Shown here in pieces: positions 10,111 through 25,385 of a DNA stretch of 32,000 nucleotides. The stretch's first letter is position 1. Each line of letters starts with the position of its first letter. The stretch lies in NCBI GenBank assembly GCA_048882505.1, contig JBHLRO010000012.1, forward strand, positions 77,923-109,922, read 5' to 3'. The stretch is from Candidatus Thorarchaeota archaeon. Its GTDB lineage: Archaea; Asgardarchaeota; Heimdallarchaeia; Hodarchaeales; Hodarchaeaceae. Position numbers and translations under genes: made by a program. The notes beneath the pieces are model-generated. The model was not told the DNA's origin. It ran no database searches and saw only the letters and a list, made by a program, of their open reading frames with translations.

Positions 10111-10506
10111 GTGGATGAGGAGTCGATACTGCCTTTCATTAATGTTTCTTATATGGACGTTCTTGAGTCTCTTGGTAGCCCAGAAAGTGTAATTAGGTTA
10201 CTAAAAACCAAGAAAATAAATCCAAAGGAGGCCGATTTTCTAGAAATTTTAGGTAGTTACATAAAGAGTCAAAATGAAACCATTTTAAATACCATACGAG
10301 ATTTATGTAACATACATTTTGGGGATCAAGGGGACGATGCATTCGAGAAGATTAAACGTTTTCTCGAAGGGCAAACCAGGGTTGCCTGGGTTATTTTCAG
10401 TCGACATTACCATAAAATCGATTTTGATGACCGTAACCCCCTCGAAGATTATCATCCCCGTATGTCAGAAGTCATTATTGTCCATTTCAAATACAAGGTA
10501 ATGTGA
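10111..10506 (+). CDS. Hypothetical protein (131 aa), first gene of a probable three-gene unit
   Basis: Protein-like composition. Its TGA stop overlaps the GTG start of the next ORF by 4 nt (GTGA). Confidence 0.6.
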   Translation: MDEESILPFINVSYMDVLESLGSPESVIRLLKTKKINPKEADFLEILGSYIKSQNETILNTIRDLCNIHFGDQGDDAFEKIKRFLEGQTRVAWVIFSRHYHKIDFDDRNPLEDYHPRMSEVIIVHFKYKVM

Positions 10507-12317
10507 ATGCCATGGGTTCTGAAAAGTGTTCTGCCCTAGCCAACGAGGCAGAAGCAGCTTCCAAACATTCGCTGGACATCGCTTCGAGTATTTATGAGGA
10601 AGCAGCAAGCTGTTATGATAAAGAAGGAGATAGACGTAAATCAGGTCAATTCCTGACGTTAGCAGGGGATCTGTTCCTTGAAATTAATAAGCATGATCAG
10701 GCTGCAACCTGTTATGGAAAAGCCATTTTACGATACCTGATGTCAGGGGATATTGAGACAGCCCAAATCCTCATAAATAAAGGCGGAGAATATGGCTTCT
10801 CCTCTGCGAACCACCATTATAGAATCGCGATTGATTCATTGGAACGGCGGAAGGAGACGAAATTAGAAACAGAGGCCGCATTAGAAGAAAGTACGGCTGA
10901 AGAATGGATGATTGAAGAGGAATCTCTTCCAGAAGTGGAAATCATGCCGCTCGACGATGAAGAGCAGTTGATTACCCTGGAAATGGATGATATTCTCGAT
11001 AAAGAGGATATTCAGATAAGGAAGCAGAATTTTGTCATCCCCCAGCTCGAAGTTGAGGATCCTTCGAGGGTGGGATCGTTTGCGGTTTTGGCTGCAGTTT
11101 CCCGAACTACTCGGGAATTGACCAGCCAAGACCAGCAGTTTATCCAAACCAATGCCGTGATACAGGATGCTTTAGGAGAGACCAAAATAATAGAACCGAA
11201 AATCACCATGTCACCAGTTAAGATAGCAGAAAGCGAAAGATCGGAGTTCTTTGAACTTTCCGAAACAATCACGACCGAAATCATGGGGGTTTCGTCTTTA
11301 GAGAATGAGGATTCAATAACAGATTCTTTAAATGGAACTTCAAACCTTGAATATCCTGATACATTAGATTTCGAGTATTCAGGAAAAACTGAGATTGTAA
11401 ACGAATATGCAGAAGAAATACATAACATTGAAGTAGTTGATACGATTCCCTTTCAGTGGCAGGTAATCGATGTTAAATCAGATTTTGATCTAGAGAAGAA
11501 ACACCGAACAAGTGAGGGATTAATCTATACATGGAAAAAAGATAGGATCTTACCTGGAAGAAAAATGGGAGTTGAATACACACTACGAAAACGGGTTGAA
11601 AGGTCAATTGTCCTGAGAAAGGAGAACCAAGTATCAGTGTTGAATCTTTATCATTCTGTTCAAAAGGATTTAAAAGCCCAAATGGAGTTTGTTAACACAA
11701 CGGGGAACTATTTCGAGGAAATTTTGATAGAAGATGTAATTCCGCCCGAATTGGTTGTGGTTCAGGCGACATCGGCTCAAGATATCAAACCAATTGCACT
11801 TCCAACTAATGATTCCACGTTATATCGATGGATTTTTAGCAGGTTACCTCCAGGTGAAACCTTTTCTGTAACCTACTTGTTTCGTGAAAAACCTATAACC
11901 AGATGGTATATACAGGAGATTGAATCTGAAAAAGGGATAGTAAAAGTAGAGAAGATTTCTCAACCTTTTGTTGATTCGAGACGATCCGAATATATCTGGA
12001 TGTATCGAATCACTAATCCGATTTTAGATGAACTGCATATCGATGACAGGATTCCAGGTGATTATGAGATTGCCCTTGTAGAACCACCTCATTTGAGACC
12101 TTCGTTAACCATGAATGGAACTCATAAGGTTCTTAGTTGGAAGTTACCTCAGGAGTCAACAAACGAAGTCGTATTGATTCGGATCTCTGGAAGCGAGTCT
12201 TTCACGCCCTTGGCGCCCGAAATTCATTTTTCACGGCTCGGAAAACCCCAGCTGGTTGAGAGAGGGGCTCAATCCCACCGAAAGGTAATCGATTTTCGTA
12301 AAATACAAGAAGAATAG
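10503..12317 (+). CDS. SNAP/TPR-like solenoid + acidic linker + three DUF11-like Ig-fold repeats
   Basis: N-terminal ASSIYEEAASCYDKEG...AGDLFLE...AATCYGKA (alpha-SNAP-type repeat pattern), a D/E-rich middle, and three repeats with D-x-IP...W cores. No signal peptide or TM segment. The start may be ATG 10512. Confidence 0.7.
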   Translation: MNAMGSEKCSALANEAEAASKHSLDIASSIYEEAASCYDKEGDRRKSGQFLTLAGDLFLEINKHDQAATCYGKAILRYLMSGDIETAQILINKGGEYGFSSANHHYRIAIDSLERRKETKLETEAALEESTAEEWMIEEESLPEVEIMPLDDEEQLITLEMDDILDKEDIQIRKQNFVIPQLEVEDPSRVGSFAVLAAVSRTTRELTSQDQQFIQTNAVIQDALGETKIIEPKITMSPVKIAESERSEFFELSETITTEIMGVSSLENEDSITDSLNGTSNLEYPDTLDFEYSGKTEIVNEYAEEIHNIEVVDTIPFQWQVIDVKSDFDLEKKHRTSEGLIYTWKKDRILPGRKMGVEYTLRKRVERSIVLRKENQVSVLNLYHSVQKDLKAQMEFVNTTGNYFEEILIEDVIPPELVVVQATSAQDIKPIALPTNDSTLYRWIFSRLPPGETFSVTYLFREKPITRWYIQEIESEKGIVKVEKISQPFVDSRRSEYIWMYRITNPILDELHIDDRIPGDYEIALVEPPHLRPSLTMNGTHKVLSWKLPQESTNEVVLIRISGSESFTPLAPEIHFSRLGKPQLVERGAQSHRKVIDFRKIQEE

Positions 12318-12434
12318 AAGGAGACCATACTAACGTCCGAATCGATAAATAAACCAGGTATAGATTTAGCTGTTCTGGCTGTCCAATGGGATGAAATTAG
12401 TGGCCCCTCCATTATTTCCCTGTTCCCTCCTTCG

Positions 12435-14264
12435 GTGCTGAAAGACCCGGAATCAGTGGCCCTACAGATATATTTAGCATCAGTAACAGTGTTTGGACAA
12501 CATGGCCAGTCACAAAGAACTGAATTCTCTGTTCCTTTACTAAGCCTTGGTCAGGACGTTATTGCTCGTGTTGCCTTTGATTCATGGGAAGATGCGGATA
12601 TTCGTGGCAAAGAGAGACCATTCTTTCTAGCATTCATTACTGGGGGTCAAACTAACGACTTATTGGGTCCTCATCTAGATATTAATATTTTCGATTATTT
12701 AAACCAACTTAAGACTAAGGAAACCAATTTTGTTGCCAAGGAAATTTGGACTGTGCTTTCTGAACGAGTTTTAACAAATGTTCCAGTTGAATCGATAGAT
12801 AATAAAGATTTATCATATGAGACTTACTCCATTAAGGATGCACTTCAAGATCTGAAAACAGCGCATGAAGCTTGGGATAAAACACAAGATAGAAACCAGT
12901 TGTGGACTGCCATACGCGTCGCAAATAAATTAGAAAACATAGATGACAATGCCGCCGGTCAGGCTTTCAATTTGGTTGGTACCATTTTCTTAGCTGGCAA
13001 GAACTACCACGAGGCCAAGGAGGCATTTGAACAGGCTACTAGTGCTTTTGGTCGTGCCCGTTTGTTCAATGATTCGGGCCAATCATCAGCATTAGCAGGA
13101 AAGTGTGCGTTTTATCTGGCTAATCTAGATGAAGCAATCGAATTTCTTCAGGGTGGAGTTCTGTGGGTAAAAGGAGAGGACAAACTTGCCTCGATTAATT
13201 TTGATATGGCAAGTGCATTGCATGCTAAAGAGCGATTCGAAGAATCCTATGTATATTTTGAAAAAGCAATCACCGCTGCCACGGGAGTAGATCCACACAT
13301 CGCAGCTGAATATTCTGCAACCTACGCTAGCAGACTTATGAGTCATGCGGATAGTGTAAGAAACAAGAATCTTACTCTGAGCCAAGATTTAATTAGACGA
13401 TCTGCAACCCAACGTGTCTCAGCAGCTCGCCTCTTATCCAAATCAGGAAACCCCCGTGAAGCAGCTAGTTCGTTAATTCTAGCGGGTAATGCGTTGCTAT
13501 CGTTGAAAGATATAAGGGAAGGATGCGATAAGTTAAGAGAAGCTGCAGATCTATTTATTGAAGCGAACGATTATTCTTCCGCTGCAAGGGCTTTATACAA
13601 TGGTGCCCGTAATATCAAGGATCCCAAAAGTTCTGACGAACTCCTTAGCAGAGCCATCAATCTATTGAAAGAGCATGAAACAGAGCAAAATTATCATACG
13701 TTGGGTCTCCTATTCTTTGAAAAGGGAAAAATCGAAACCAAGCGGCAGCAAATTGTCAAATCTATCCTATCTTTTGAACAATCATCCGAATTTTTGACTC
13801 AGGCCCAAATAAAGGGTATTGAACTCTTCTCCATATATATCCAATTGGCCAACAATCATTTCAAATTAGAATCCTTTGAACGAGCCGCATTATCATTTTT
13901 TAAGGCCCATAATTCCTTAGCGGAGGCACCTAGACGGGGAAACTTAGAGGATCAGTACCAAAAAGCGTTTCTAAATGGCTTGATAAGTTTACGTCGTGCA
14001 AGTACCGTATACCACAATGCAGGAATCGTGGCTCTTCAAAATAAGGAAGAAGGTCGAGCACTCGATTTGTTTGGTCGATCAATAGCATTACTTGTTGAAT
14101 GGGTAAGAAAAAACCGTTTGATGCATGAAGAAGAAGTCAAAAAGACAATATATGAACGTGTGGAAGCATTAGAGCTGAAATTAGGAATATTTGTCAAAGC
14201 TGAATCCAAATATAGGTTGAACGTTGAGATTTCAAGGTTAAAAAACGCAATGAAGTCTTTTTAG
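12435..14264 (+). CDS. Longin/uDENN-like N-terminal domain + TPR/SNAP-like alpha-solenoid (true start probably upstream, about 12327-12360)
   Basis: The in-frame upstream sequence reads IDLAVLAVQWDEISGPSIISLFPP, the typical first strand-GP-strand-P motif of longin/uDENN domains. The rest is TPR/SNAP-like helical repeats (e.g. REAASSLILAGNALL...REAADLFIEANDYSSAARAL). Confidence 0.7.
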   Translation: MLKDPESVALQIYLASVTVFGQHGQSQRTEFSVPLLSLGQDVIARVAFDSWEDADIRGKERPFFLAFITGGQTNDLLGPHLDINIFDYLNQLKTKETNFVAKEIWTVLSERVLTNVPVESIDNKDLSYETYSIKDALQDLKTAHEAWDKTQDRNQLWTAIRVANKLENIDDNAAGQAFNLVGTIFLAGKNYHEAKEAFEQATSAFGRARLFNDSGQSSALAGKCAFYLANLDEAIEFLQGGVLWVKGEDKLASINFDMASALHAKERFEESYVYFEKAITAATGVDPHIAAEYSATYASRLMSHADSVRNKNLTLSQDLIRRSATQRVSAARLLSKSGNPREAASSLILAGNALLSLKDIREGCDKLREAADLFIEANDYSSAARALYNGARNIKDPKSSDELLSRAINLLKEHETEQNYHTLGLLFFEKGKIETKRQQIVKSILSFEQSSEFLTQAQIKGIELFSIYIQLANNHFKLESFERAALSFFKAHNSLAEAPRRGNLEDQYQKAFLNGLISLRRASTVYHNAGIVALQNKEEGRALDLFGRSIALLVEWVRKNRLMHEEEVKKTIYERVEALELKLGIFVKAESKYRLNVEISRLKNAMKSF

Positions 14265-14297: not shown

Positions 14298-16526
14298 TCA
14301 TTCATTTGATGAACTAGATAGTCGTTCCCTTTTTTCGAGCAGTTTTTTTTCTTTGGTTTTAAGGCGACTTATCATGTCTGAATGTTTTTTACTGTCTATC
14401 TCATTTGCGAGGAATTTCTCATCAATTTTATCTATCGAAGTTTGGATATTCTCTAGGGCTTTATCAATTCCCTTGAGTCCTACATCGATTCCTTCAGTTT
14501 GGCGTTGGAAATCATCGCCATATTGAGACCCCTCTGGTTTGTGTAAGGCAGACCAGGTGATATCTATGGCTCGTCGCTTACTAGATTGCTTTTTAAGGGG
14601 AGGAGTGGGAGGACTGGGAGGGGACGGAGGCGTGGGTTCTCTTTTCCTTCTATCAGTTCTAAGACTTTTTCGAGATGAAGTATCTTCTAATGATTCGTCT
14701 TCTCCGATTATCCATCCTTTAGTTTCCCCTTTTAGCTCGGCCAGAATCACGTTAGGATCTTCTTGAAATATGGAGGTAATTCTTTCAGAGAATAAGGCAT
14801 TGAACCTTTCCTGATCCCGTAATATCTTTTCCCTGGCCTCCTCTAAGTTGATCTTTTCCCCCTCTTGGATATCTATACCAAAAACCCTGACCATTTCGCC
14901 TTGTGGCGTTTCTACAACACTTACAAAAGGCGTTCGAACAAAAGAATATTCTTTGGTTTCCAATACGGTCACGAATCCTCCAAAAATTCGAACAAAGCTC
15001 CCGATCCCCTTCATTTCAATTACCTTCACTGCTCCACCCAGAATGTTAACCAGTTCCAGATCACTTGACTCGAATACGTAAACTCCAGGCAATCGAACTA
15101 AAGAATAGTCTTTAGTTTCTCTTATTGCGTATTTAGAGGGGGTTGGATCTAAGACTGAAGAAAAGATGTCTCTAGGGCCCCTCCACTGTTTCAGGTTATT
15201 GAGAGCTGCTTCAGCCTTGTTAAAAACCTCCATAATATCCCCTATGCCAGCCATGCTTAACTCTTGATTTGTTAATTCATTCATATCTTTTGGATTCAAA
15301 TTAACACGAATATCCTCCCATTCCTCAGGAGGTAACCAAATCGTGGTCGTTCCCTCAACTTCTTGTGTCTGTGATTCTTGATTAGTAGAATCAGTTTGCA
15401 TTTCGGATTTACCCATTAGAACTACTGCGGTTCCTTTTTCCGTGACTGCAGGTACGGCTATTGTACCATGTTTTGCGGAAACTTTCGTCTTACCCTTGGA
15501 TACAAGGGTTAAACCGCCCGTAGGAATGGTATAGACTGTTTCTGGCTTGTGAAACTCGACCCCCTTGATATCTCGGGCAAAAGTCTGAACTCGTGAGGCG
15601 AGCTGACTAGAAGGGTCTATTTCTCTTCCTGCTCCAGAAATAGAACTCACCAGCGATTCAAAACGTGAGGCCGATTTCTCGCGGGGAGCGAGCGATAGAA
15701 TAATTCCAAAAATAATACCGATTAGTGATAGATATGAAAAAAAGTCGCGAGACGAGACAATCCAATTCGGTAACCACAGAAACAGCAATAGTAACAATCC
15801 CCCAGTAAAACAAGCATCACGAAACCGCTCCATCCTCGTATTCATTGCTGAATACTGTTCTAATATCGAACCAACGCTCATTGAGAGTTGTACAGGCGTC
15901 CTAGGAAGAAGAGTCCCCACTATAAACGATGCAAATCCTAAGAGAACAAAGAGCTCTTTTTGTAAAATCAGTTCTGTTGAGAATAGGTATATATTTCGAA
16001 AAATGAACAAAATTAAACATGAATGCCAGATTCCTTTTAGAATTCGGCTCAGATAAAAATCATATCCCAATTGTAAATTGGTGAACGAGAAAGAACCGAA
16101 GAAAACTGCCGCAGGGAGCATTAGGGCGATAAACAACCGTTCAAATTCGGCATAAGTAAGTGGAGAGATAAATGTATCGATTCCATGGAAAACAGGAGGA
16201 ACCTGTCCAGTAAATAAATCAATCAATAATAAGAAAACAACCGCCTTCATGGCCCTATTCACAGAGGTAGCAGCCATTCTTAGTTCCTTGGTTTTTAGCA
16301 GACGAACGTAAATAGGGATTAAAATATACAATCCTGAAGCAACCAGAAATAGAGTCACACGAAACTCTGGCTGAAATGCAAATAGTGTCGATGTAATGAA
16401 CCAAAAAACCAGGATTAAAAGGTATATCGAATCAAGAAAGGTTCTTGGACGAAGGAATTGTTCAGTCTGATCAAGTGCAAAGCTCTCAAGAGATGAGTAT
16501 TTTGAGAGGGAGTTTATATTCTTCAT
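14298..16526 (-). CDS. Hypothetical membrane protein: about 8 N-terminal TM helices, cytosolic domain with short beta-repeats, poly-proline stretch and C-terminal coiled coil
   Basis: Hydrophobic segments in aa ~30-280, repeats such as LVNILGGAVKVIE / FVRIFGGFVTVLE, PTPPSPPSPPTPP, and a charged heptad-like C-terminus. Confidence 0.75.
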   Translation of the reverse strand: MKNINSLSKYSSLESFALDQTEQFLRPRTFLDSIYLLILVFWFITSTLFAFQPEFRVTLFLVASGLYILIPIYVRLLKTKELRMAATSVNRAMKAVVFLLLIDLFTGQVPPVFHGIDTFISPLTYAEFERLFIALMLPAAVFFGSFSFTNLQLGYDFYLSRILKGIWHSCLILFIFRNIYLFSTELILQKELFVLLGFASFIVGTLLPRTPVQLSMSVGSILEQYSAMNTRMERFRDACFTGGLLLLLFLWLPNWIVSSRDFFSYLSLIGIIFGIILSLAPREKSASRFESLVSSISGAGREIDPSSQLASRVQTFARDIKGVEFHKPETVYTIPTGGLTLVSKGKTKVSAKHGTIAVPAVTEKGTAVVLMGKSEMQTDSTNQESQTQEVEGTTTIWLPPEEWEDIRVNLNPKDMNELTNQELSMAGIGDIMEVFNKAEAALNNLKQWRGPRDIFSSVLDPTPSKYAIRETKDYSLVRLPGVYVFESSDLELVNILGGAVKVIEMKGIGSFVRIFGGFVTVLETKEYSFVRTPFVSVVETPQGEMVRVFGIDIQEGEKINLEEAREKILRDQERFNALFSERITSIFQEDPNVILAELKGETKGWIIGEDESLEDTSSRKSLRTDRRKREPTPPSPPSPPTPPLKKQSSKRRAIDITWSALHKPEGSQYGDDFQRQTEGIDVGLKGIDKALENIQTSIDKIDEKFLANEIDSKKHSDMISRLKTKEKKLLEKRERLSSSSNE

Positions 16527-16698: not shown

Positions 16699-19600
16699 TT
16701 ATTCATCAAAAAACAGTTTCTGGCCACCACAAATCCTACAGCCCTCGTCAGAAAGTTCTTGGGGGCTCACAATAGATCCGCATTCGGAACAGAAAATGTT
16801 TTCATCATCGAAGGGTTCAGGTTCCGCTTGGATTGCCTTCTTACTTTCCAGATTACCATTGATGAAAACGTCCGTTCCAGTCACAATACCCTCCTCGTTG
16901 AGTTCAAATCTTGTGTTAGATGACCGCCCTTTGTCATCTACATTTGAAGATAAATTTGTGACGAGCACCTGCTCAGAAAATGAATCTGTCTCTCGAACAG
17001 AGGCTATATGATCTTTCTCTTCTAGATCAGGTTTAGGGTTTAAAGCAGAATCTACAGGTTCGCCTTCCATTTGGATTTCTTTCAGTTCAGCTTTAATCGG
17101 GCTCTTGGAAGGTATATCAAAGATTTCCTCTAAGCTTCTGACCTTTGGTTTCCTGAAAGAAGTCCGCCCCTTAGTTTTCTTTATGTTGGAATCCCCAAGA
17201 GACTTTTTCTTTCTTAATTTTTGATTTAACGTCGGTTTATTACCCAGAACAAATTCCTTTCTTTCAACGCCTTGATGAACAGTCTGTTTCAAAGATTTAA
17301 GCTTGTTTTCGTACTCTGCTTCAAGATCTGTCTTCTGTACTCTGGATATATTCTGGGTGATCATTGGGTACTTTACCATTCGATCGTGAATCCTCCCAGG
17401 TCCGAAAATATCGTCAATATATTGTTGTATATCAATGAGCTTTCTTAAATCCTCTTTAGATTTCAGTTCACCCAGCATGAAGCTTAAAGTTCCTATTCCG
17501 TGCCTAATTAAAACTGGCTTAACGACATTAAATTCCAAATCAAAAATCTGTTTCGGGAGGACGTGGTTACCTTTGCCCTTGATATTTAGCATCTCAACTC
17601 TGGTACCAGGGCCCACTCTGTAATTTAGATCTTCCAATATCCTTGCACAAGTCACTTGGGGTAATTCTGACTTATACGAGTCTAATTGTTTATTTATTGC
17701 CTTGGGTTTAACAAAATATGATATGTCCATGGATCCTGATGTTATTTCTTCCCTTATTGATTCCGAGGTTTGCATTGCATGTTTATACAGTTCTCTTAGG
17801 GTAATCGGGTTTTCTGAGTCATAATCGTCTAGATAAGCATCAATTATCCGTTCCTGATAATATTTTTGGAGTTTCGAGAAGTCAGCACGCTTTGATTCAA
17901 GGCCGGTCAGTTCCTCCTCAATCCATTTGGTGTTTGGGTTATTCTCCAAATAGTTGTATACGATATACTTTTTCTTCCCCATCACAAATTGAAAATCATA
18001 ACCTCCGTCCTGCTCAAACTTTATCAGACTCTTGGTCTTTCTCTGAATTGTGTTCCCATCATTAATCCAATAATTCTCATTAATAAATCCTGATTCTTCC
18101 ACCTGGGAATTCAAAATTTTATCGATAAGGGTAACCTGATGGGTCTCCATATCATTACTATTCTTAGAGCCAATGAAAACAGGAAAATCAATAGGAAACG
18201 CCTTAGGAAGCCATAACCAAATTCCATCCGTGTCAAGCTCCGTCACCCATCCTATCTGTTCCAATTGATCAGCTGCCCATTGAATTAAATCTGCGGATAG
18301 CTTGGTAGTAATTCCTGCGGAGGGTGTACTCGCGTTACGAACTCCGCCCTTCATGCCCAATAATCCGTATATCGAATTTAATGGAACTTTCATTCCCAAT
18401 TGAGTACTATCATGGAATTTCTGTTGTCTTAACAACTCTGCGGATACGTGTTCATTCCTTTTCGTTTTTTGTACTATTCTTTGTTCAAGCTGTTGAGCTT
18501 GCTTTTTGTGAGAGAGTCGCGTATTAAAGAAATCGTCCATTATTCGGGCTAGGAAATTATAAGCCTTTTGGCATACCCGAGAACGTACTGAGAGGAAAAC
18601 GACCAGGTTTTTGGTCCTAACATCTAAACTGAGATACGTTTCTTCGGGAAGCTTAAGATCTGAAGATTGATCCTCAAATAAATCAATCTGTGAAAAGCCT
18701 AAGGATCTTGTTAATTCAGTTGCCTCGACCGATTTTTCTAACCATTCTTGTATCGTACGGAACGGATCATCGTTCAAAACGGAGCCTAGGTAGCTCTTCC
18801 TTATAGGGATTGATTCAAGCTCCGATCTTTTCCGTAACCTGTATACACGAGTTTTTTCACCATCAAAAGCGTATACTTCCTGAAATCGTGATTGAGAGGT
18901 CTGTAAAGGTTCATAATTCTTACAATTTTCAGCTTTTGCATTTGTACAAACAGAAGGATCGCATTTATTAGTTTCTTGGATGAGATGACGACACGGTCGT
19001 CGCCCAGAGAGTTTTACTATCCAATCTCCCTCGAAATAACAACTTTGATCAGGCTCATAAAATTCACAGCTCGAACACTGTTTTTTAGACACAATTCCCG
19101 ATGGTTGCAGTTTGTATTGCCTTATCTGGGAGGGATACATCGAGGTTACATCGACATGAAGTCCGCGTAGCTGGATTCTACCCCGATTTTCAGCAATATA
19201 GTCTATATTCTCTAAAATCTCCATTTTTACTTTTTCGGAGTCAACAATGTGAAGTGATTTTATTTCATCTAAAATCTCTTCCGCTGCATCTATTTTTTCG
19301 GAAACTTCTTTTTCTCCGAGGCCATTCTTGGATAAAGCTCTTTTAATTTTCCGAATACAATCCTTATGATTATCAGAATATGGTATATTCAAATTATCTA
19401 GTTCTGAAGACACAAAAGCTTCAAATCTTTCTGTAGCGGTCTTTTGTAGAATCGATTCACTCTCATCCTCTATTATCTTCGCGATTACGGGCTTGAGGTT
19501 TTTCAGACTTGTTTTGTTTGGCGTAAAATCGTAGTATATATCAGATCGGAATATTCCAGGCCTTCTCGCCTCCACGAGGCCACCCGTGAATGCAAGAGAC

Positions 19601-21213
19601 TCAATCGTTATATTTGGTGAAAAGCTGCCTCTATTTTTCTGACTAAATCGTCTTTTACCAACGATATTATGTTTATAGTCCTCTGCATCAATGAGAAGGT
19701 CATCCAGAGATCCAGATCTTCTCGATAGAAGTTCCGCGGCTGAAACTGGGAACATCTGCCCTAGCGAAATAAAGAAACCTAAAACGATTTCTCGAGCATA
19801 TTTCCATGTTATATATCCGTCACTGGCGGCATAGGTTGCAGCTAGAACTGGATCATCCCCAAAAAGAGCTTCCCTCCCAATGGGAAGGATTTTTAGTTTT
19901 TTCTCTACGCTCTGTTTTAATCCGAGATCCTTTTTAGGAAGATAGGAATATTTCTCGTTGAAATCAAAACTATCCAAATGAATTATTCCAGCGCCCGTCA
20001 CATGATCAATTTGAGAAGCAGAATATCCCTGAATGATTTTACTTCGTTTTCCAGTTGCTCCCCTGTCTTCAAACTGACTTTTCAAAACAATCTTAAATCC
20101 TGTTTCCTTTTGTAGAGATAATCGATGTTTCTCAGCTCTAACGGTCAAAAATGGTATGTCAAAACGACCACCAAAAAAGTCAGCTAAGACATCAGGTTGA
20201 TAATCTCTTATAAACTGGAAAAATACACGAAGAAGTTCTGCTTCGCCGTTGATTGACAAAACTTGAACAGGAAATCGTTCTAAAATGTTGGCTGAGGATT
20301 CTATCGTGTCACCGGGGATCCAATCAACCCAAGGTTTAGAGTGTTTATCATCCTTTTGCCTTAGGACTATATCGAAATTTCTGATGTTGCTAGAGTCCAC
20401 TACCTGGGAATTAATCAACAAAAGATTTCCCGTTCGATCAGTATCTCCTGTAAAGAGGGAAATCATGGTTATAACATCGAGGTTCGGATTCGGTTCACGA
20501 TTCCGTTCAAAAGTCGTTTCAATATCAAAGGCAATGACTCGTAGCTCTGGTGGTGCTCGATTTGGTATGGAACTTAGTTTTACTATTTCTCCGCCATCGA
20601 TTTCTGCTTCATACCAACATCCCACGCGTATATCATGATCAATGGCTACTCGATGGTGGAACAGGACATCAGCTTCGCGCCATTCAATGATACCTTCAAT
20701 TCGTTCGAGTTGCTCTCTTAAAGAAGGAACTGACCCAGGATGATCTACGGTGACACGTATGAATGGTTTTTGTTTCAAAAAAGTAAGTTCTTCAGCGTCA
20801 TAAGATTCTGTCATTTCAACATTAACAATCTTATTTCCTCCCTGGTGCCAGATTTCATTTTGAATTCGTGACAAATTTAAGGATGAAATGCCAACATCCA
20901 CCAACAAATAAAAATATGGTGAATGTCGCAGGAACGCTTTCCTCTTCACATGGTCCTGATCCAAAAAATAGATTTGGATTCCGTTTATTCGATTCCCCCG
21001 TGCTCCAGTTTCTGGACTGTCCTGATCATAAAATCCCGTATTTTGACTTTCTTCCCACTTACTGTCTGGTTCGAAATCCAAAATAAAAATTGGTGTTCTG
21101 ACCCGCTGACGATACCTAAAAGGTTTAAACCAGGACCGATATCCTGGAAACGAACTTGAATCTCGACTTGCACTGGCCAATATGATCTTCTCGTTATTAA
21201 AGTTCAAATTCAC
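16699..21213 (-). CDS. polB: Family B DNA polymerase, DNA polymerase epsilon-like (single catalytic module) with C-terminal Zn-ribbon
   Basis: Exo I AFDIETT, Exo II FDIPFL, Exo III YAASDG. Pol motif A HVDVTSMYP, motif B KVPLNSIYG, motif C ELDTDGIW. Pol-epsilon-specific features: GIFRSD, the CysX motif CSSC-x8-C...VCQK, and FEQDGGY...KKKYIVYN. C-terminal CSEC-x13-CRIC. Confidence 0.92.
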   Translation of the reverse strand: MNLNFNNEKIILASASRDSSSFPGYRSWFKPFRYRQRVRTPIFILDFEPDSKWEESQNTGFYDQDSPETGARGNRINGIQIYFLDQDHVKRKAFLRHSPYFYLLVDVGISSLNLSRIQNEIWHQGGNKIVNVEMTESYDAEELTFLKQKPFIRVTVDHPGSVPSLREQLERIEGIIEWREADVLFHHRVAIDHDIRVGCWYEAEIDGGEIVKLSSIPNRAPPELRVIAFDIETTFERNREPNPNLDVITMISLFTGDTDRTGNLLLINSQVVDSSNIRNFDIVLRQKDDKHSKPWVDWIPGDTIESSANILERFPVQVLSINGEAELLRVFFQFIRDYQPDVLADFFGGRFDIPFLTVRAEKHRLSLQKETGFKIVLKSQFEDRGATGKRSKIIQGYSASQIDHVTGAGIIHLDSFDFNEKYSYLPKKDLGLKQSVEKKLKILPIGREALFGDDPVLAATYAASDGYITWKYAREIVLGFFISLGQMFPVSAAELLSRRSGSLDDLLIDAEDYKHNIVGKRRFSQKNRGSFSPNITIESLAFTGGLVEARRPGIFRSDIYYDFTPNKTSLKNLKPVIAKIIEDESESILQKTATERFEAFVSSELDNLNIPYSDNHKDCIRKIKRALSKNGLGEKEVSEKIDAAEEILDEIKSLHIVDSEKVKMEILENIDYIAENRGRIQLRGLHVDVTSMYPSQIRQYKLQPSGIVSKKQCSSCEFYEPDQSCYFEGDWIVKLSGRRPCRHLIQETNKCDPSVCTNAKAENCKNYEPLQTSQSRFQEVYAFDGEKTRVYRLRKRSELESIPIRKSYLGSVLNDDPFRTIQEWLEKSVEATELTRSLGFSQIDLFEDQSSDLKLPEETYLSLDVRTKNLVVFLSVRSRVCQKAYNFLARIMDDFFNTRLSHKKQAQQLEQRIVQKTKRNEHVSAELLRQQKFHDSTQLGMKVPLNSIYGLLGMKGGVRNASTPSAGITTKLSADLIQWAADQLEQIGWVTELDTDGIWLWLPKAFPIDFPVFIGSKNSNDMETHQVTLIDKILNSQVEESGFINENYWINDGNTIQRKTKSLIKFEQDGGYDFQFVMGKKKYIVYNYLENNPNTKWIEEELTGLESKRADFSKLQKYYQERIIDAYLDDYDSENPITLRELYKHAMQTSESIREEITSGSMDISYFVKPKAINKQLDSYKSELPQVTCARILEDLNYRVGPGTRVEMLNIKGKGNHVLPKQIFDLEFNVVKPVLIRHGIGTLSFMLGELKSKEDLRKLIDIQQYIDDIFGPGRIHDRMVKYPMITQNISRVQKTDLEAEYENKLKSLKQTVHQGVERKEFVLGNKPTLNQKLRKKKSLGDSNIKKTKGRTSFRKPKVRSLEEIFDIPSKSPIKAELKEIQMEGEPVDSALNPKPDLEEKDHIASVRETDSFSEQVLVTNLSSNVDDKGRSSNTRFELNEEGIVTGTDVFINGNLESKKAIQAEPEPFDDENIFCSECGSIVSPQELSDEGCRICGGQKLFFDE

Positions 21214-21728: not shown

Positions 21729-21989
21729 ATGTCCTTGAATCTATTGGAGAAATATAGAATTGAGATCCTTGCTACCTTAATAGCTCTCATCCTAATTTTG
21801 GCTGGTATCTTCCTTCCATTCTTCCTTCCCGATCAACTACCTATGGCGCCGGCTGGATTTGAAGATGCCACATGGTTTAAACAACTTATTCAAGTGCTAT
21901 TTATTGGAATGGGAGTCCTCTGTTTTATTTGGCTTATCGTGATTAACAGATTCATCAGGAAAAGCAAAAAGAGCGATCTCGTATACTAG
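21729..21989 (+). CDS. Small hypothetical membrane protein (2 TM)
   Basis: Two hydrophobic helices and a basic C-terminus. GAGGT ribosome-binding-like site about 9 nt upstream of the ATG. Confidence 0.65.
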   Translation: MSLNLLEKYRIEILATLIALILILAGIFLPFFLPDQLPMAPAGFEDATWFKQLIQVLFIGMGVLCFIWLIVINRFIRKSKKSDLVY

Positions 21990-21999
21990 GGGCTATGCG

Positions 22000-24549
22000 T
22001 TACCTAATTACAGATCGGGCCTTGAGAAGACGCATTTCCACAATCCTCTGAAGCTCCATATGAACCTTGGTGATAACTTCGACGTCTACCCCAAATAAAC
22101 TGGCCATAAAATCATTAATATCCTTTAACACTTGACTCTGCTTCCTGGAGCTCAGGATGAAAGGCGAAGAACCGTAAAAATTTCCTATCATTTCATATAG
22201 AGATGAATGCCCTTTCATTGTGCCATATGATTTGATTCTTTCAATTTTAGGTACTTTTAGAAGTGAATATTCATAAACTTTGATATCCAAACCTCCTTCT
22301 CCCAAATTGTTCCTTCCCAACAATTCTATCTGAAATGCAGAAAAGCTCGAATTCAGCACTAATAAATAGATCAATAGAATCCAAGATGGAAGATCGTTTC
22401 TAAATCGGATACCATAAAATCGAGCATCGAATCTAAAACCTCGTGGATTATCAAAGAAGGGAAACCTATCATTCATGGTCATTAAGCAGAGGAATCTGAA
22501 CTGCGATGGATCTATTAATGGAAGTTCAAACCATTTTCTTCGGGATCTGCACGTAGGGCGTAGAGGATATTTTTGTCCTATAACTGGTTCCCAATTCTCT
22601 CCCCAATTGATATATTCAGAAACTCCCGGCTTTAATTTCTCTCCCATCCTACTATTGATTACCAAAACAACATGGTTAACATCTTTTTCTTGGATTTCAT
22701 ATGATTTAATTTGACGGGGTGATTTAATAAGATAATTCGGGATCCATCTCTCTCCATTATTCGCTAAATGCTGATATTCATAAGAAAATTCTTCATCATC
22801 TTCTGTTACTATATTCATCCAGTATTCTCTCTCTATTACAAACATGGGGTCTTTAACCTGAAAACCTTGGTTGAGGAATTCATTTTTGATGGAATCATCT
22901 TTTAGATGCAGCATTAGATTTCCATTTGATGTATCCAGTGAAGCCCGAAATATACTATTCGCCTTTCCTGGTTTCGGGAGATAAAAAAATGCATTTGCGC
23001 CACTTGTAAACCCCCGCTTAATAGAAGTGATTTCCCCCAAAGATATTAGGGTGTCATTAACCTTCCTCAGTAGTCCCCTAAAAATGGGAATCTGACGAAA
23101 GAAAACGCTCCATTTTGGCGTGTTAGCGAGTTCCTGTCGATCAATTAAAGCGGAGGCAACCTGTTTACTTTTTACCTCTTGGCTGTTCCCTAGATCCTTC
23201 CTAGCACTAATCGATATAAATTTTACCGGTTTTAAATGCCATTCAAGGTCGGGATCTATTTTGGCAAGGTTTAGTATGATTGTGTTAACTTCAACTTCGG
23301 GGATCAACTTTTCCAAAGGGCAGTTCAGTAAGAAGCTGATGTGATAATGGGTTAAAAAACAGGTTTTTAGGATTTGGCCATACCTTACATCTAACCATGA
23401 ATTTGGAATAATCAATCCTAATCTATCCCCTGGTTTTAAAAAAGTAGTAAGGTGAATAATAAAATAAACATAGATGCTGGCACGGCCCAATAAATTCCGT
23501 CTTGTCAGGGGGAGATGTAGATATTCACAGTCTGCTTTCATTCTTTCATAAATGCGCTCTTTATAGTCATCTGCTAGCAGTTCTTGACGGGTGTACGGAG
23601 GATTCACTAAAAAAACCGTTTCATCGTTGGAACTTGTATTTAAACCAGGTGAATCTTGAGCAAAGTCAAAAAAATCTGCAATGATAATAGTAAAATTGAT
23701 TGAAAAAAAATTTACCGAAGTAAAATAACTCAAAGCACTTTTTGCAATCCCCCCGAGTATTGGATCTTTCTCTATTCCGATAAATGTTATTCCCGACGGA
23801 ATCAATTCTCTCTGAATCAGAAGGTTCAAGCTACGCAGCAACATGATCCCCGTTCCGCAGGCCGGATCCACTATTCGAGTTACTTTAGCTGGAATTAGTC
23901 TTCTACATAGAAAATCGGCAACCAAAACTGGTGTAAACACCTGACCCTTTGCTTGCTTGTCATTGTGAGCTATTGCCGATTCGAATACATAAGGTAGCAT
24001 CATGTGGTGACGTATGGATTCTGTGTTCCCAGATGAAAACTGCACTAGATTCTTTGAAAGTACCCATGATATTGATTTATTGTCAAGTAAAATGTCGTCT
24101 AGGGCATTGAGGGGAAATCCTTCTCTGTTCATTATTGGGAATCGGGAAGATACACGCCCAGCCTTTCTAAAAAAGGTTTTCAGAAGCCTATTGAAACTTT
24201 CAGACCCTGTTACCTTATCTCTTTTCTTGTTATAGACTGAATATTTCAGATTTTCTAAAGCTGAAGATAAATTCTTATCGCTCTGACTCAATAAGAGGCC
24301 AATCAGGATTTTATCATGGTATAAAGCACCAATAACGTTATTTAGCGATAGAATCCTTTTTTCCGAAAAACTTACTTCTTTCTCCCCGATTAAAACTTTT
24401 TTGAGTGATAAGGATAGTTTTTCGCCACAATAATCATGGCGAAGGATTTCTATGAGCAAATTTCGAACCAATGGATATAATTCCTCGGTCAAGCAAGTGT
24501 AAAGTGGAGAAAAGTTACTTAAATCCTTCCTTGCAGAGTGCGAAATCAA
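22000..24549 (-). CDS. N6-adenine DNA methyltransferase (gamma class, Eco57I/TaqI-like) with large C-terminal target-recognition region
   Basis: GQVFTP (motif X), VDPACGTG (motif I, SAM binding), LVNPPY (motif IV), LGLIIPNSWLDVRYG, IKRGFTSGANAFF. Confidence 0.88.
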   Translation of the reverse strand: MISHSARKDLSNFSPLYTCLTEELYPLVRNLLIEILRHDYCGEKLSLSLKKVLIGEKEVSFSEKRILSLNNVIGALYHDKILIGLLLSQSDKNLSSALENLKYSVYNKKRDKVTGSESFNRLLKTFFRKAGRVSSRFPIMNREGFPLNALDDILLDNKSISWVLSKNLVQFSSGNTESIRHHMMLPYVFESAIAHNDKQAKGQVFTPVLVADFLCRRLIPAKVTRIVDPACGTGIMLLRSLNLLIQRELIPSGITFIGIEKDPILGGIAKSALSYFTSVNFFSINFTIIIADFFDFAQDSPGLNTSSNDETVFLVNPPYTRQELLADDYKERIYERMKADCEYLHLPLTRRNLLGRASIYVYFIIHLTTFLKPGDRLGLIIPNSWLDVRYGQILKTCFLTHYHISFLLNCPLEKLIPEVEVNTIILNLAKIDPDLEWHLKPVKFISISARKDLGNSQEVKSKQVASALIDRQELANTPKWSVFFRQIPIFRGLLRKVNDTLISLGEITSIKRGFTSGANAFFYLPKPGKANSIFRASLDTSNGNLMLHLKDDSIKNEFLNQGFQVKDPMFVIEREYWMNIVTEDDEEFSYEYQHLANNGERWIPNYLIKSPRQIKSYEIQEKDVNHVVLVINSRMGEKLKPGVSEYINWGENWEPVIGQKYPLRPTCRSRRKWFELPLIDPSQFRFLCLMTMNDRFPFFDNPRGFRFDARFYGIRFRNDLPSWILLIYLLVLNSSFSAFQIELLGRNNLGEGGLDIKVYEYSLLKVPKIERIKSYGTMKGHSSLYEMIGNFYGSSPFILSSRKQSQVLKDINDFMASLFGVDVEVITKVHMELQRIVEMRLLKARSVIR

Positions 24550-24650: not shown

Positions 24651-25385
24651 TCAAGAGAAGAATGACTCGAGCGGAACTAATTTTGGAATTATCTGTATAT
24701 AATATTCACAAGATGCTTTTATAGGACATATATGACATTTTGGTTTCTGAGAAACGCATATCGTGGCTCCTAGATCCAATAATCCTTGATTTATGGTCCA
24801 CGAATCTTTCGAACTAACAGTAATGTTTTCGGCAACCATCCAAATCTCCTTTTCCAAGGCAGCATTTTTTTCCCTATCCCATAACGCGAAAGCCCTAATA
24901 ATAATCCGCTCGACGTTTACGTCCACAATTGCCGCATCCTTGTCTTGTAGTTCATAGGCAAAACTTAGAATTGCGCCTGCAGTATATCTCCCGATTCCCT
25001 TCAAACTAATCAGACCCTCCAACGTTGCAGGTATAATTCCTCCCTTTTCAGAGACAATCTGGCGTGCTATCTGTTGGAGATATAACCCACGACGTTTATA
25101 GCCAAGCTGATCAGTGATGGCACGAATGTCGCTGATTTTGCCCCTCGCCAGACTTTGGATCGTAGGAAATTTCTTTAGAAATCGCTTGAAAATCGGGATA
25201 ACTAAATCTACGTTAGTTTGTTGTAGCATAATTTCACTGATAAGAATTTGATATGGATCCCGAGTATGTCTCCATGGTAGATCTCGTCCATAGAGCCTGA
25301 ACCACTCGATAAGATCATTTACAATATCGGGAATACGTTTCTCGATGATCGAATGATTAGGAGCGGAAATCTTGTGATTATTCAT
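24651..25385 (-). CDS. mutY: HhH-GPD DNA glycosylase, short MutY/MIG-like, with [4Fe-4S] motif
   Basis: LPWRHTRDPYQILISEIMLQQT, HhH LKGIGRYTAGAI, catalytic VDVNVER, C-x6-C-x2-C-x5-C (CVSQKPKCHICPIKASC). No MutT-like C-terminal domain. Confidence 0.85.
   Translation of the reverse strand: MNNHKISAPNHSIIEKRIPDIVNDLIEWFRLYGRDLPWRHTRDPYQILISEIMLQQTNVDLVIPIFKRFLKKFPTIQSLARGKISDIRAITDQLGYKRRGLYLQQIARQIVSEKGGIIPATLEGLISLKGIGRYTAGAILSFAYELQDKDAAIVDVNVERIIIRAFALWDREKNAALEKEIWMVAENITVSSKDSWTINQGLLDLGATICVSQKPKCHICPIKASCEYYIQIIPKLVPLESFFS

Follow-up and report, generated by a model that had tools for sequence, protein, structure and literature searches.

A family-B DNA polymerase (PolB) gene in a Hodarchaeales genome raises the question of how much of eukaryotic DNA polymerase epsilon (Pol epsilon) a single archaeal polymerase contains, and what the rest of the protein consists of. 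The gene lies on contig JBHLRO010000012.1 of GenBank assembly GCA_048882505.1 (Candidatus Thorarchaeota archaeon; 4.3 Mb, 94.5% complete), within a stretch of 32,000 nucleotides that was analysed whole and is called the window here. We conclude that it very probably encodes a polymerase of the archaeal PolB group B10, predicted to be catalytically competent and to proofread, which is the Hodarchaeales homologue of the N-terminal catalytic module of Pol2/POLE1.

This polymerase is the known B10 or Hodarchaeales polymerase and not a new discovery. Group B10 was defined from Heimdallarchaeota LC3 and B3 as the sister of the Pol epsilon N-terminal module (PolE-N), with a motif C glutamate and one C-terminal metal-binding motif, and PolE-N was proposed to derive from such a B10-bearing archaeon (Kazlauskas 2020, NAR, PMC7544198). 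An epsilon polymerase was reported only in Hodarchaeales (Eme 2023, PMC10307638), and a study in Nat Ecol Evol 2025 described a 'Pol-epsilon1-NTD-containing PolB' whose C-terminal domain, a zinc finger, is poorly predicted (PMC12680538). The window polymerase shares with the published B10 members the sister position to PolE-N, the motif C glutamate, the single C-terminal metal motif and the restriction to one order, and shows no family-level difference from them. With the orthologue that Kazlauskas 2020 names from B3_Heim (locus L018), it shares 57% identity over 1190 residues, and with a GenBank protein from a Heimdallarchaeota metagenome-assembled genome 91%.

A lone catalytic module of the Pol epsilon type

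Sequence, fold and tree agree on the identity of the protein. Searched with phmmer against PDB, it matches Pol epsilon cores at E = 1e-56, archaeal PolBs at 1e-16 and Pol delta at 0.0025, and its best 150 matches among 1.84 billion representative proteins are its own family followed only by long eukaryotic proteins of Pol epsilon size. The AlphaFold2 (AF2) model of residues 100-1299 has a predicted local distance difference test score (pLDDT) of 86 and a predicted template-modelling score (pTM) of 0.83. In Foldseek, the first 36 PDB structures retrieved are without exception catalytic cores of Pol epsilon, with template-modelling (TM) scores of 0.66-0.69 normalised by query and about 0.72 by target, and archaeal (Thermococcales) PolBs come next at 0.48.

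A PolB phylogeny had been named by an earlier first-pass annotation of this DNA as the test that could refute its assignment to Pol epsilon. We built a maximum-likelihood tree (LG+C20+F+G4 PMSF, posterior mean site frequency) of 49 rows and 1063 columns, including 21 archaeal B10 and 16 eukaryotic PolE-N sequences. The B10 family is supported at 100/100, eukaryotic PolE-N at 100/100 and the two joined at 100/98, and the split that unites them is kept (97) when only the 632 columns with at least 92% of rows occupied are used. The next branches are PolBs of Deinococcus and Chloroflexota (G3-like) and of Thermoplasmatales and Bathyarchaeia (B9-like). Outside these fall the genome's own B1-, B2- and B3-like PolBs, an Aenigmatarchaeota PolB and E. 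coli Pol II, and the family thus stands with PolE-N and apart from the other PolBs of its own genome. The bacterial G3 and archaeal B9 polymerases, which form the EpsilonN-like clade of Kazlauskas 2020, are therefore the next nearest branch; their sequences have about 780-840 aa and are only 23-30% identical to the window polymerase over short stretches, and they share the motif C glutamate according to that publication.

The gene itself and the parts of its catalytic core are as follows.

16699..21213 (minus strand): Pol-epsilon-like family-B DNA polymerase gene (PolB group B10); longest open reading frame, 1504 aa from GTG at 21213
19924..20679 (minus strand): 3'-5' exonuclease domain, residues 179-430, with Exo I D230/E232 and Exo II D352 (Pfam PF03104, E = 3e-25; motif alignment)
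19039..19152 (minus strand): motif A (DVTSMYPS, D688), then CysX cysteines 1-3 (C713, C716, C725), invariant in 45 archaeal homologues and aligned with yeast C665/C668/C677
18571..18573 (minus strand): CysX cysteine 4 (C881, in SRVCQKAY), aligned with yeast C763
18223..18390 (minus strand): motif B (KVPLNSIYG, 942-950) to motif C (E992-LDTDG, D994/D996), from motif alignment

The real start is probably TTG at 21180, giving 1493 rather than 1504 aa, because database entries and homologue N-termini agree on it: the deposited entries for the identical protein and for the 91%-identical protein begin 11 codons inside the open reading frame, and the GYRSWF motif of homologues sits 12-14 residues past the first Met, as expected from that start. 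Pfam assigns the PolB exonuclease and PolB polymerase domains; NCBIfam has no model for the B10 family, and its best matches are far under cut-off.

Motif conservation was scored after aligning 45 full-length homologues from archaea with Pol epsilon sequences from six eukaryotes. The catalytic residues are intact in both activities, as the first-pass annotation had stated: Exo I (FDIET, D230 and E232), Exo II D352, Exo III Y461/D465 just downstream of the exonuclease domain, motif A D688, motif B K942/N946/Y949, motif C D994 and D996 in E992-LDTDG, and KKKY at 1080-1083. FDIET, the Exo II Asp, the Exo III YxxxD, DVTSMYPS, KVPLNSIYG, ELDTDG and KKKY are invariant across the archaeal homologues, and the motif C glutamate is invariant in the six eukaryotic sequences as well. 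This glutamate before DTD has been described as a synapomorphy of PolE-N, B10 and bacterial G3 (PMC7544198). The polymerase gene is real and well conserved, and its features, each kept in the 45 homologues, are not due to chance.

[quoted passage not shown] It differs from Pol2/POLE1 in an extra helical insertion at residues ~577-645, in a P-domain insert about 70 aa longer with four extra cysteines, and above all in what follows the thumb. There it has neither the inactivated C-terminal PolB module (DUF1744) nor the CysA/CysB C-terminal domain, and its tail consists of a disordered linker and one zinc ribbon, in place of CysA and CysB on a helical bundle; partners of the Dpb2, Dpb3 or Dpb4 kind are not known for it. 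A second PolB module is absent, as the protein ends about 215 aa past the thumb in a tail without a Pfam match, while the eukaryotic matches carry PF08490, PF22634 and PF23250. A search of the genome for PF08490 (DUF1744) gave no match, although the control genomes gave none either. The claim of one active module without a second one is thus borne out, and what the gene encodes is a lone catalytic module of the Pol epsilon type.

CysX and a second cysteine cluster in a P-domain-like insert

The first-pass annotation had recognised a CysX motif, and all of its coordinates (for the open reading frame, CysX, the terminal ribbon and the linker motif VRSLEEIF) check out. In HMMER alignments with solved Pol epsilon structures, Cys713, Cys716, Cys725 and Cys881 (19077, 19068, 19041 and 18573) align with C665, C668, C677 and C763 of yeast Pol2, which are the CysX ligands of a [4Fe-4S] cluster (PMC6582351), and all four are invariant in the 45 archaeal homologues. 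By analogy with yeast and human Pol epsilon, CysX would hold a [4Fe-4S] cluster on which DNA binding and polymerisation depend. Between its third and fourth cysteines lies an enlarged insert.

18574..19038 (minus strand): enlarged P-domain-equivalent insert between CysX C3 and C4, 155 aa (sequence alignment; model pLDDT about 70-90)
18922..18993 (minus strand): second Cys4 cluster C741-x9-C751-x4-C756-x7-C764 in the P-domain insert, in 45/45 archaeal members and in none of the six eukaryotes

The C3-C4 spacing is 149-186 aa in the archaeal homologues versus 83-85 aa in the six eukaryotes. The insert leaves the palm at the same site as the eukaryotic P-domain; the TM of 0.68 refers to the whole core, the sub-domain itself being compared by sequence alone. 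In all 45 archaeal members the second Cys4 cluster starts exactly 16 residues past CysX C3. Its pattern is C-x9-C-x(2,4)-C-x7-C in the subgroup to which the window polymerase belongs, and other spacings occur in a second subgroup. Because the number of cysteines is kept while their spacing changes, the cluster suggests a second metal site, which would be structural and would sit within the processivity domain. No statement on this cluster was found in the literature searched on the B10 family.

The linker and the terminal zinc ribbon

Past the thumb, which ends near residue 1290, a linker of ~185 aa leads to the terminal ribbon, and four elements can be distinguished.

16792..17343 (minus strand): basic, poorly conserved, predicted-disordered linker, residues ~1291-1474 (alignment, AF2; no Pfam match)
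17119..17142 (minus strand): PIP-like short linear motif VRSLEEIF, residues 1358-1365 (family consensus: basic run + xQSL[D/E]x[I/L]F)
16855..16905 (minus strand): second linker motif, residues 1437-1453, ELNEEGIVTGTDVFING, degenerate here (consensus acidic E[L/I]xELExxx[I/L]FxNG)
16729..16791 (minus strand): C-terminal C4 zinc ribbon (C1475, C1478, C1492, C1495), the only folded element of the tail

The linker motif VRSLEEIF had been called a degenerate PIP-like sequence. Its position was correctly given, and the word 'degenerate' does not hold, since the motif, a basic run followed by xQSL[D/E]x[I/L]F, is a conserved linear motif present in 32 of the 32 members of the window's subgroup. In the Pol epsilon of eukaryotes, a PIP box of the QxxIxxFF type occupies the equivalent place, about 30 residues past the thumb. 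The second subgroup carries xxxLxxF[F/Y/L] motifs in its linker, for instance GDLTKFF. Two of its members, P0047 and P0048, lack the terminal zinc ribbon and end in a near-canonical PIP-like ITDLR[V/A]FF, with another such motif mid-linker.

When a 43-residue linker segment was docked on the genome's PCNA, the score was 0.32 versus 0.01 for the best control; at least 83% of the contacts recur between runs, and the pLDDT of the partner is at least 44. The docking mark is reached by 58 of 80 solved complexes and by 2 of 110 mismatched pairs; with a score of 0.60 or less it is reached by only 7 of the 80 solved complexes, yet by both of the mismatched pairs that pass. The pass may also be a recall of solved PCNA-PIP complexes, and the docking model lends weak support to a PIP-like role of the motif. 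If it has this role, the motif would tether the polymerase to PCNA in the manner of the Pol2 PIP box. The genome has two PCNA-like genes, one of 290 aa with a ~35-residue poly-acidic C-terminal tail (L045:1489-2361, plus strand, contig C67) and one of 280 aa that is very divergent, with E = 3.6e-5 to PCNA_N (L046:970-1812, minus strand).

The ribbon at the C-terminus is single, in agreement with the earlier description. All four of its cysteines are invariant in 35 aligned tails, and it is preceded by the acidic linker motif, in which E1440 and G1453 are invariant. AF2, run on the last 80 residues, folds nothing but the ribbon of ~25 aa (pLDDT about 87) and gives no helical bundle. Searched against PDB, a profile built from the tail retrieved only generic zinc ribbons (TFIIS, RPA12, L37a, Spt4) at a non-significant E of at least 0.006, and Pfam gave no match on the tail. 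The tail was rejected on these grounds as a C-terminal domain of the CysA, CysB or DP2 kind. The ribbon and the acidic motif would instead form a small docking or DNA-contact module.

The first-pass annotation had proposed that the zinc ribbon binds a B subunit like DP1 or Dpb2. In its fullest form, this would make the ribbon a minimal domain of the CysA/CysB type that recruits DP1 as B subunit, and the enzyme a two-subunit proto-Pol epsilon. Eukaryotic PolB and PolD catalytic subunits do bind their B subunit or DP1 through C-terminal zinc modules, and a co-evolution of B10 with DP1 has been speculated on (both PMC7544198); the genome also encodes a DP1 of 523 aa with Metallophos and DNA_pol_E_B domains. 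However, the C-terminal domain of a Hodarchaeal polymerase did not interact with Hodarchaeal DP1 in a yeast two-hybrid assay (PMC12680538). The B10 C-terminal domain did not cluster with those of PolE, PolA or DP2 and resembles RpoP-type ribbons (PMC7544198). The roughly 25 residues that fold do not include the helical bundle that forms the B-subunit interface in eukaryotes, two members of the second subgroup have no ribbon at all, and DP1 has its usual partner, DP2, in 23 of the 24 genomes of the order. We consider DP1 binding by the ribbon highly improbable, and this part of the earlier annotation is not supported. The PolB-DP2CTD fusions of Baldrarchaeia and Aenigmatarchaeota are also archaeal PolBs with a C-terminal zinc module and have been discussed as precursors of the replicative polymerases of eukaryotes; their C-terminal domain is derived from DP2 and bound DP1 in the two-hybrid assay, whereas the Hodarchaeales ribbon is unrelated to it and did not (PMC12680538). 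Their catalytic cores lie on the delta-like side of the tree, and the window polymerase lies on the epsilon side.

We tentatively propose, as one possible reading, that the enzyme combines a CysX [4Fe-4S] cluster and a second Cys4 cluster (lost in eukaryotes) in an enlarged processivity domain with a PCNA tether equivalent to the PIP box of Pol2. If this is true, an Fe-S-dependent P-domain and a PCNA tether predate the fusion that made eukaryotic Pol epsilon, and the published claim that only Pol epsilon orthologues have CysX and the P-domain, both being absent from other PolBs (introduction of PMC7544198), needs correcting.

Several points weigh against our overall reading of the gene. The tree was built without Pol alpha, delta and zeta and without viral PolBs. 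In the window's subgroup, Exo II reads FFGGRFD, with the usual Asn replaced, which may bear on the efficiency of proofreading. The tail of the window protein contains no canonical PIP (Qxx[LIM]xx[FY][FY]) at all; the linker motif departs from it by a Q shifted one position and by I/L in place of the first aromatic residue, and the weakness of the docking support counts on the same side. The metal content, activity and PCNA binding of B10 members are all things that we infer. Finally, the same genome encodes B1-, B2- and B3-like PolBs and a complete PolD (DP1, DP2), so that the B10 enzyme need not serve as a principal replicase.

Distribution, PolD and the history of the gene

Among the 24 GTDB species genomes of the order, 23 have the B10 polymerase and the single genome without it is 71% complete, while it is missing from all 59 genomes that belong to other families of the class. 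The titles of the 23 GTDB loci read Heimdall-, Hod-, Hermod- or Promethearchaeota or simply archaeal metagenome-assembled genome. Flanking genes recur in 15-18 of 23 related loci, and the G+C content (GC) of the polymerase gene is the same as that of its flanks. Because of this conserved gene order and flank-like GC, the polymerase is a stable chromosomal gene of the order. A mobile-element origin was rejected on the basis of the GC, the order-wide synteny and the neighbours scanned, which hold no integrase or transposase. In some orthologues (P0022, P0025, P0030; G002, G007, G069, G070, G073), inteins with LAGLIDADG and intein-splicing domains sit in the polymerase domain, making frames of 1900-2020 aa; the window copy is intein-free.

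The first-pass annotation had called the enzyme a pre-fusion form of Pol epsilon. This stands as a published hypothesis (PMC7544198, PMC12680538), the second of these papers proposing that the Hodarchaeal polymerase was fused with a PolB-DP2CTD to give Pol epsilon, and the direction of transfer is disputed (PMC12395588). The same protein could have the opposite history, namely lateral transfer, with proto-eukaryotes or else a mobile element as the source, as Forterre 2025 argued (PMC12395588); Kazlauskas 2020 left the origin of the family open (PMC7544198). Eukaryotes do not branch inside B10 in our tree, where the two groups are reciprocally monophyletic on long stems of about 2.1 and 2.4 changes per column. 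The absence of the family from the other genomes of the class and its great divergence from the genome's own B1, B2 and B3 PolBs point the same way. On the other side, the near-universal presence in the order, the conserved synteny, the host-like GC and the lack of mobile-element genes seen in the flanks would make any transfer an old event at the base of the order. The polymerase also has no eukaryote-specific fusion partner and carries the extra Cys4, which is missing from the eukaryotes examined. We regard the opposite history as unlikely.

The B10 family is one of a small number of informational genes that Hodarchaeales and eukaryotes share with no other group, and for that reason it bears on the branching of eukaryotes and on the origin of the leading-strand polymerase, as the literature already holds. 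Neither the conservation of CysX, nor the second Cys4, nor the PIP-like linker motif, nor the order-wide presence of DP2 was found stated in PMC7544198, PMC10307638 or PMC12680538. The additions made here are modest: CysX is conserved, a second Cys4 cluster is present, the PIP-like motif is conserved in position, and the polymerase coexists with PolD. They give sequence-level support to the view that the Fe-S motif, the second Cys4 and the PIP-like tether are ancestral to the B10 family. The window adds an intact full-length orthologue, from a genome that also has PolD, PCNA and three other PolBs, and thus a usable protein source for biochemistry; a single-chain B10 enzyme would be a direct way to see the role of the Pol epsilon Fe-S cluster without the eukaryotic holoenzyme.

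With respect to PolD, LC3 and B3 were reported to lack an active DP2, and the DP1 of LC3 to be inactivated (PMC7544198), while we find the DP2 catalytic domain in 23 of the 24 genomes of the order. Since DP2 is so widespread, the B10 polymerase coexists with PolD and does not replace it. In the source genome, DP2 (L044:1240-4575, minus strand, contig C15) has 1111 aa with the N-terminal, central and catalytic Pfam domains. Here, as in most of the order's genomes, the match to the profile of the catalytic domain stops at about position 215 of 299, and for this reason the C-terminal, DP1-binding part of DP2 may be divergent. DP1 (L006:1321-2892, minus strand, contig C24) adjoins Orc1/Cdc6 and keeps the DxH, GDxxD and GHxH phosphoesterase motifs. 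It has GEHD instead of GNHD, and its nuclease activity is uncertain for this reason.

These findings bear on what the B10 enzyme does in the cell. It could be a specialised polymerase, acting in repair, in translesion synthesis or restart, or as an auxiliary on the lagging or leading strand, with PolD remaining the replicase. The complete DP2, the DP1 beside Orc1/Cdc6, the order-wide DP2, the three further PolBs and an HhH-GPD glycosylase gene 3.4 kb upstream of the polymerase are in line with such a role. Strong purifying conservation of the processivity domain, the Fe-S motif and the PIP-like tether is, however, typical of a replicative enzyme, and the GEHD of DP1, together with the inactivated DP1 reported in LC3, weakens the case for PolD. 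A specialised role is thus possible, although rather doubtful to us. Our preferred reading, a proofreading B10 homologue of the Pol2 catalytic module, does not require that it be the principal replicase, because the genome has PolD and B1-, B2- and B3-like PolBs; the B10 polymerase would work beside them.

The neighbouring genes vary in how closely they accompany the polymerase. Directly downstream, at 14298-16526 (minus strand), is a gene for a 742-aa protein of no Pfam family, syntenic with the polymerase in 18 of the 23 loci. Its N-terminal half (~280 aa) passes the membrane several times and is followed by a repetitive middle rich in beta structure, a stretch rich in Pro and a tail that resembles a coiled coil; the protein was rejected as an accessory subunit of the polymerase because of its multiple membrane passes and lack of a replication domain. 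Beyond it, at 10111-14264 (plus strand; also delimited as 10503-14264), an opposite-strand operon encoding SNAP-like and tetratricopeptide repeat (TPR) proteins is syntenic in 15-16 of the 23 loci. On the other side, an 86-aa two-helix membrane open reading frame at 21729-21989 (plus strand) is divergent from the polymerase gene and adjoins it in 18 of the 23 loci. Upstream, at 22000-24549 (minus strand), lies an 849-aa N6-DNA-methylase/Eco57I-type (type IIG-like) restriction-modification protein, a variable neighbour that occurs in only some of the related loci at 36-76% identity. The HhH-GPD base-excision glycosylase (24651-25385, minus strand, 244 aa) is kept in 3 of the 23 loci.

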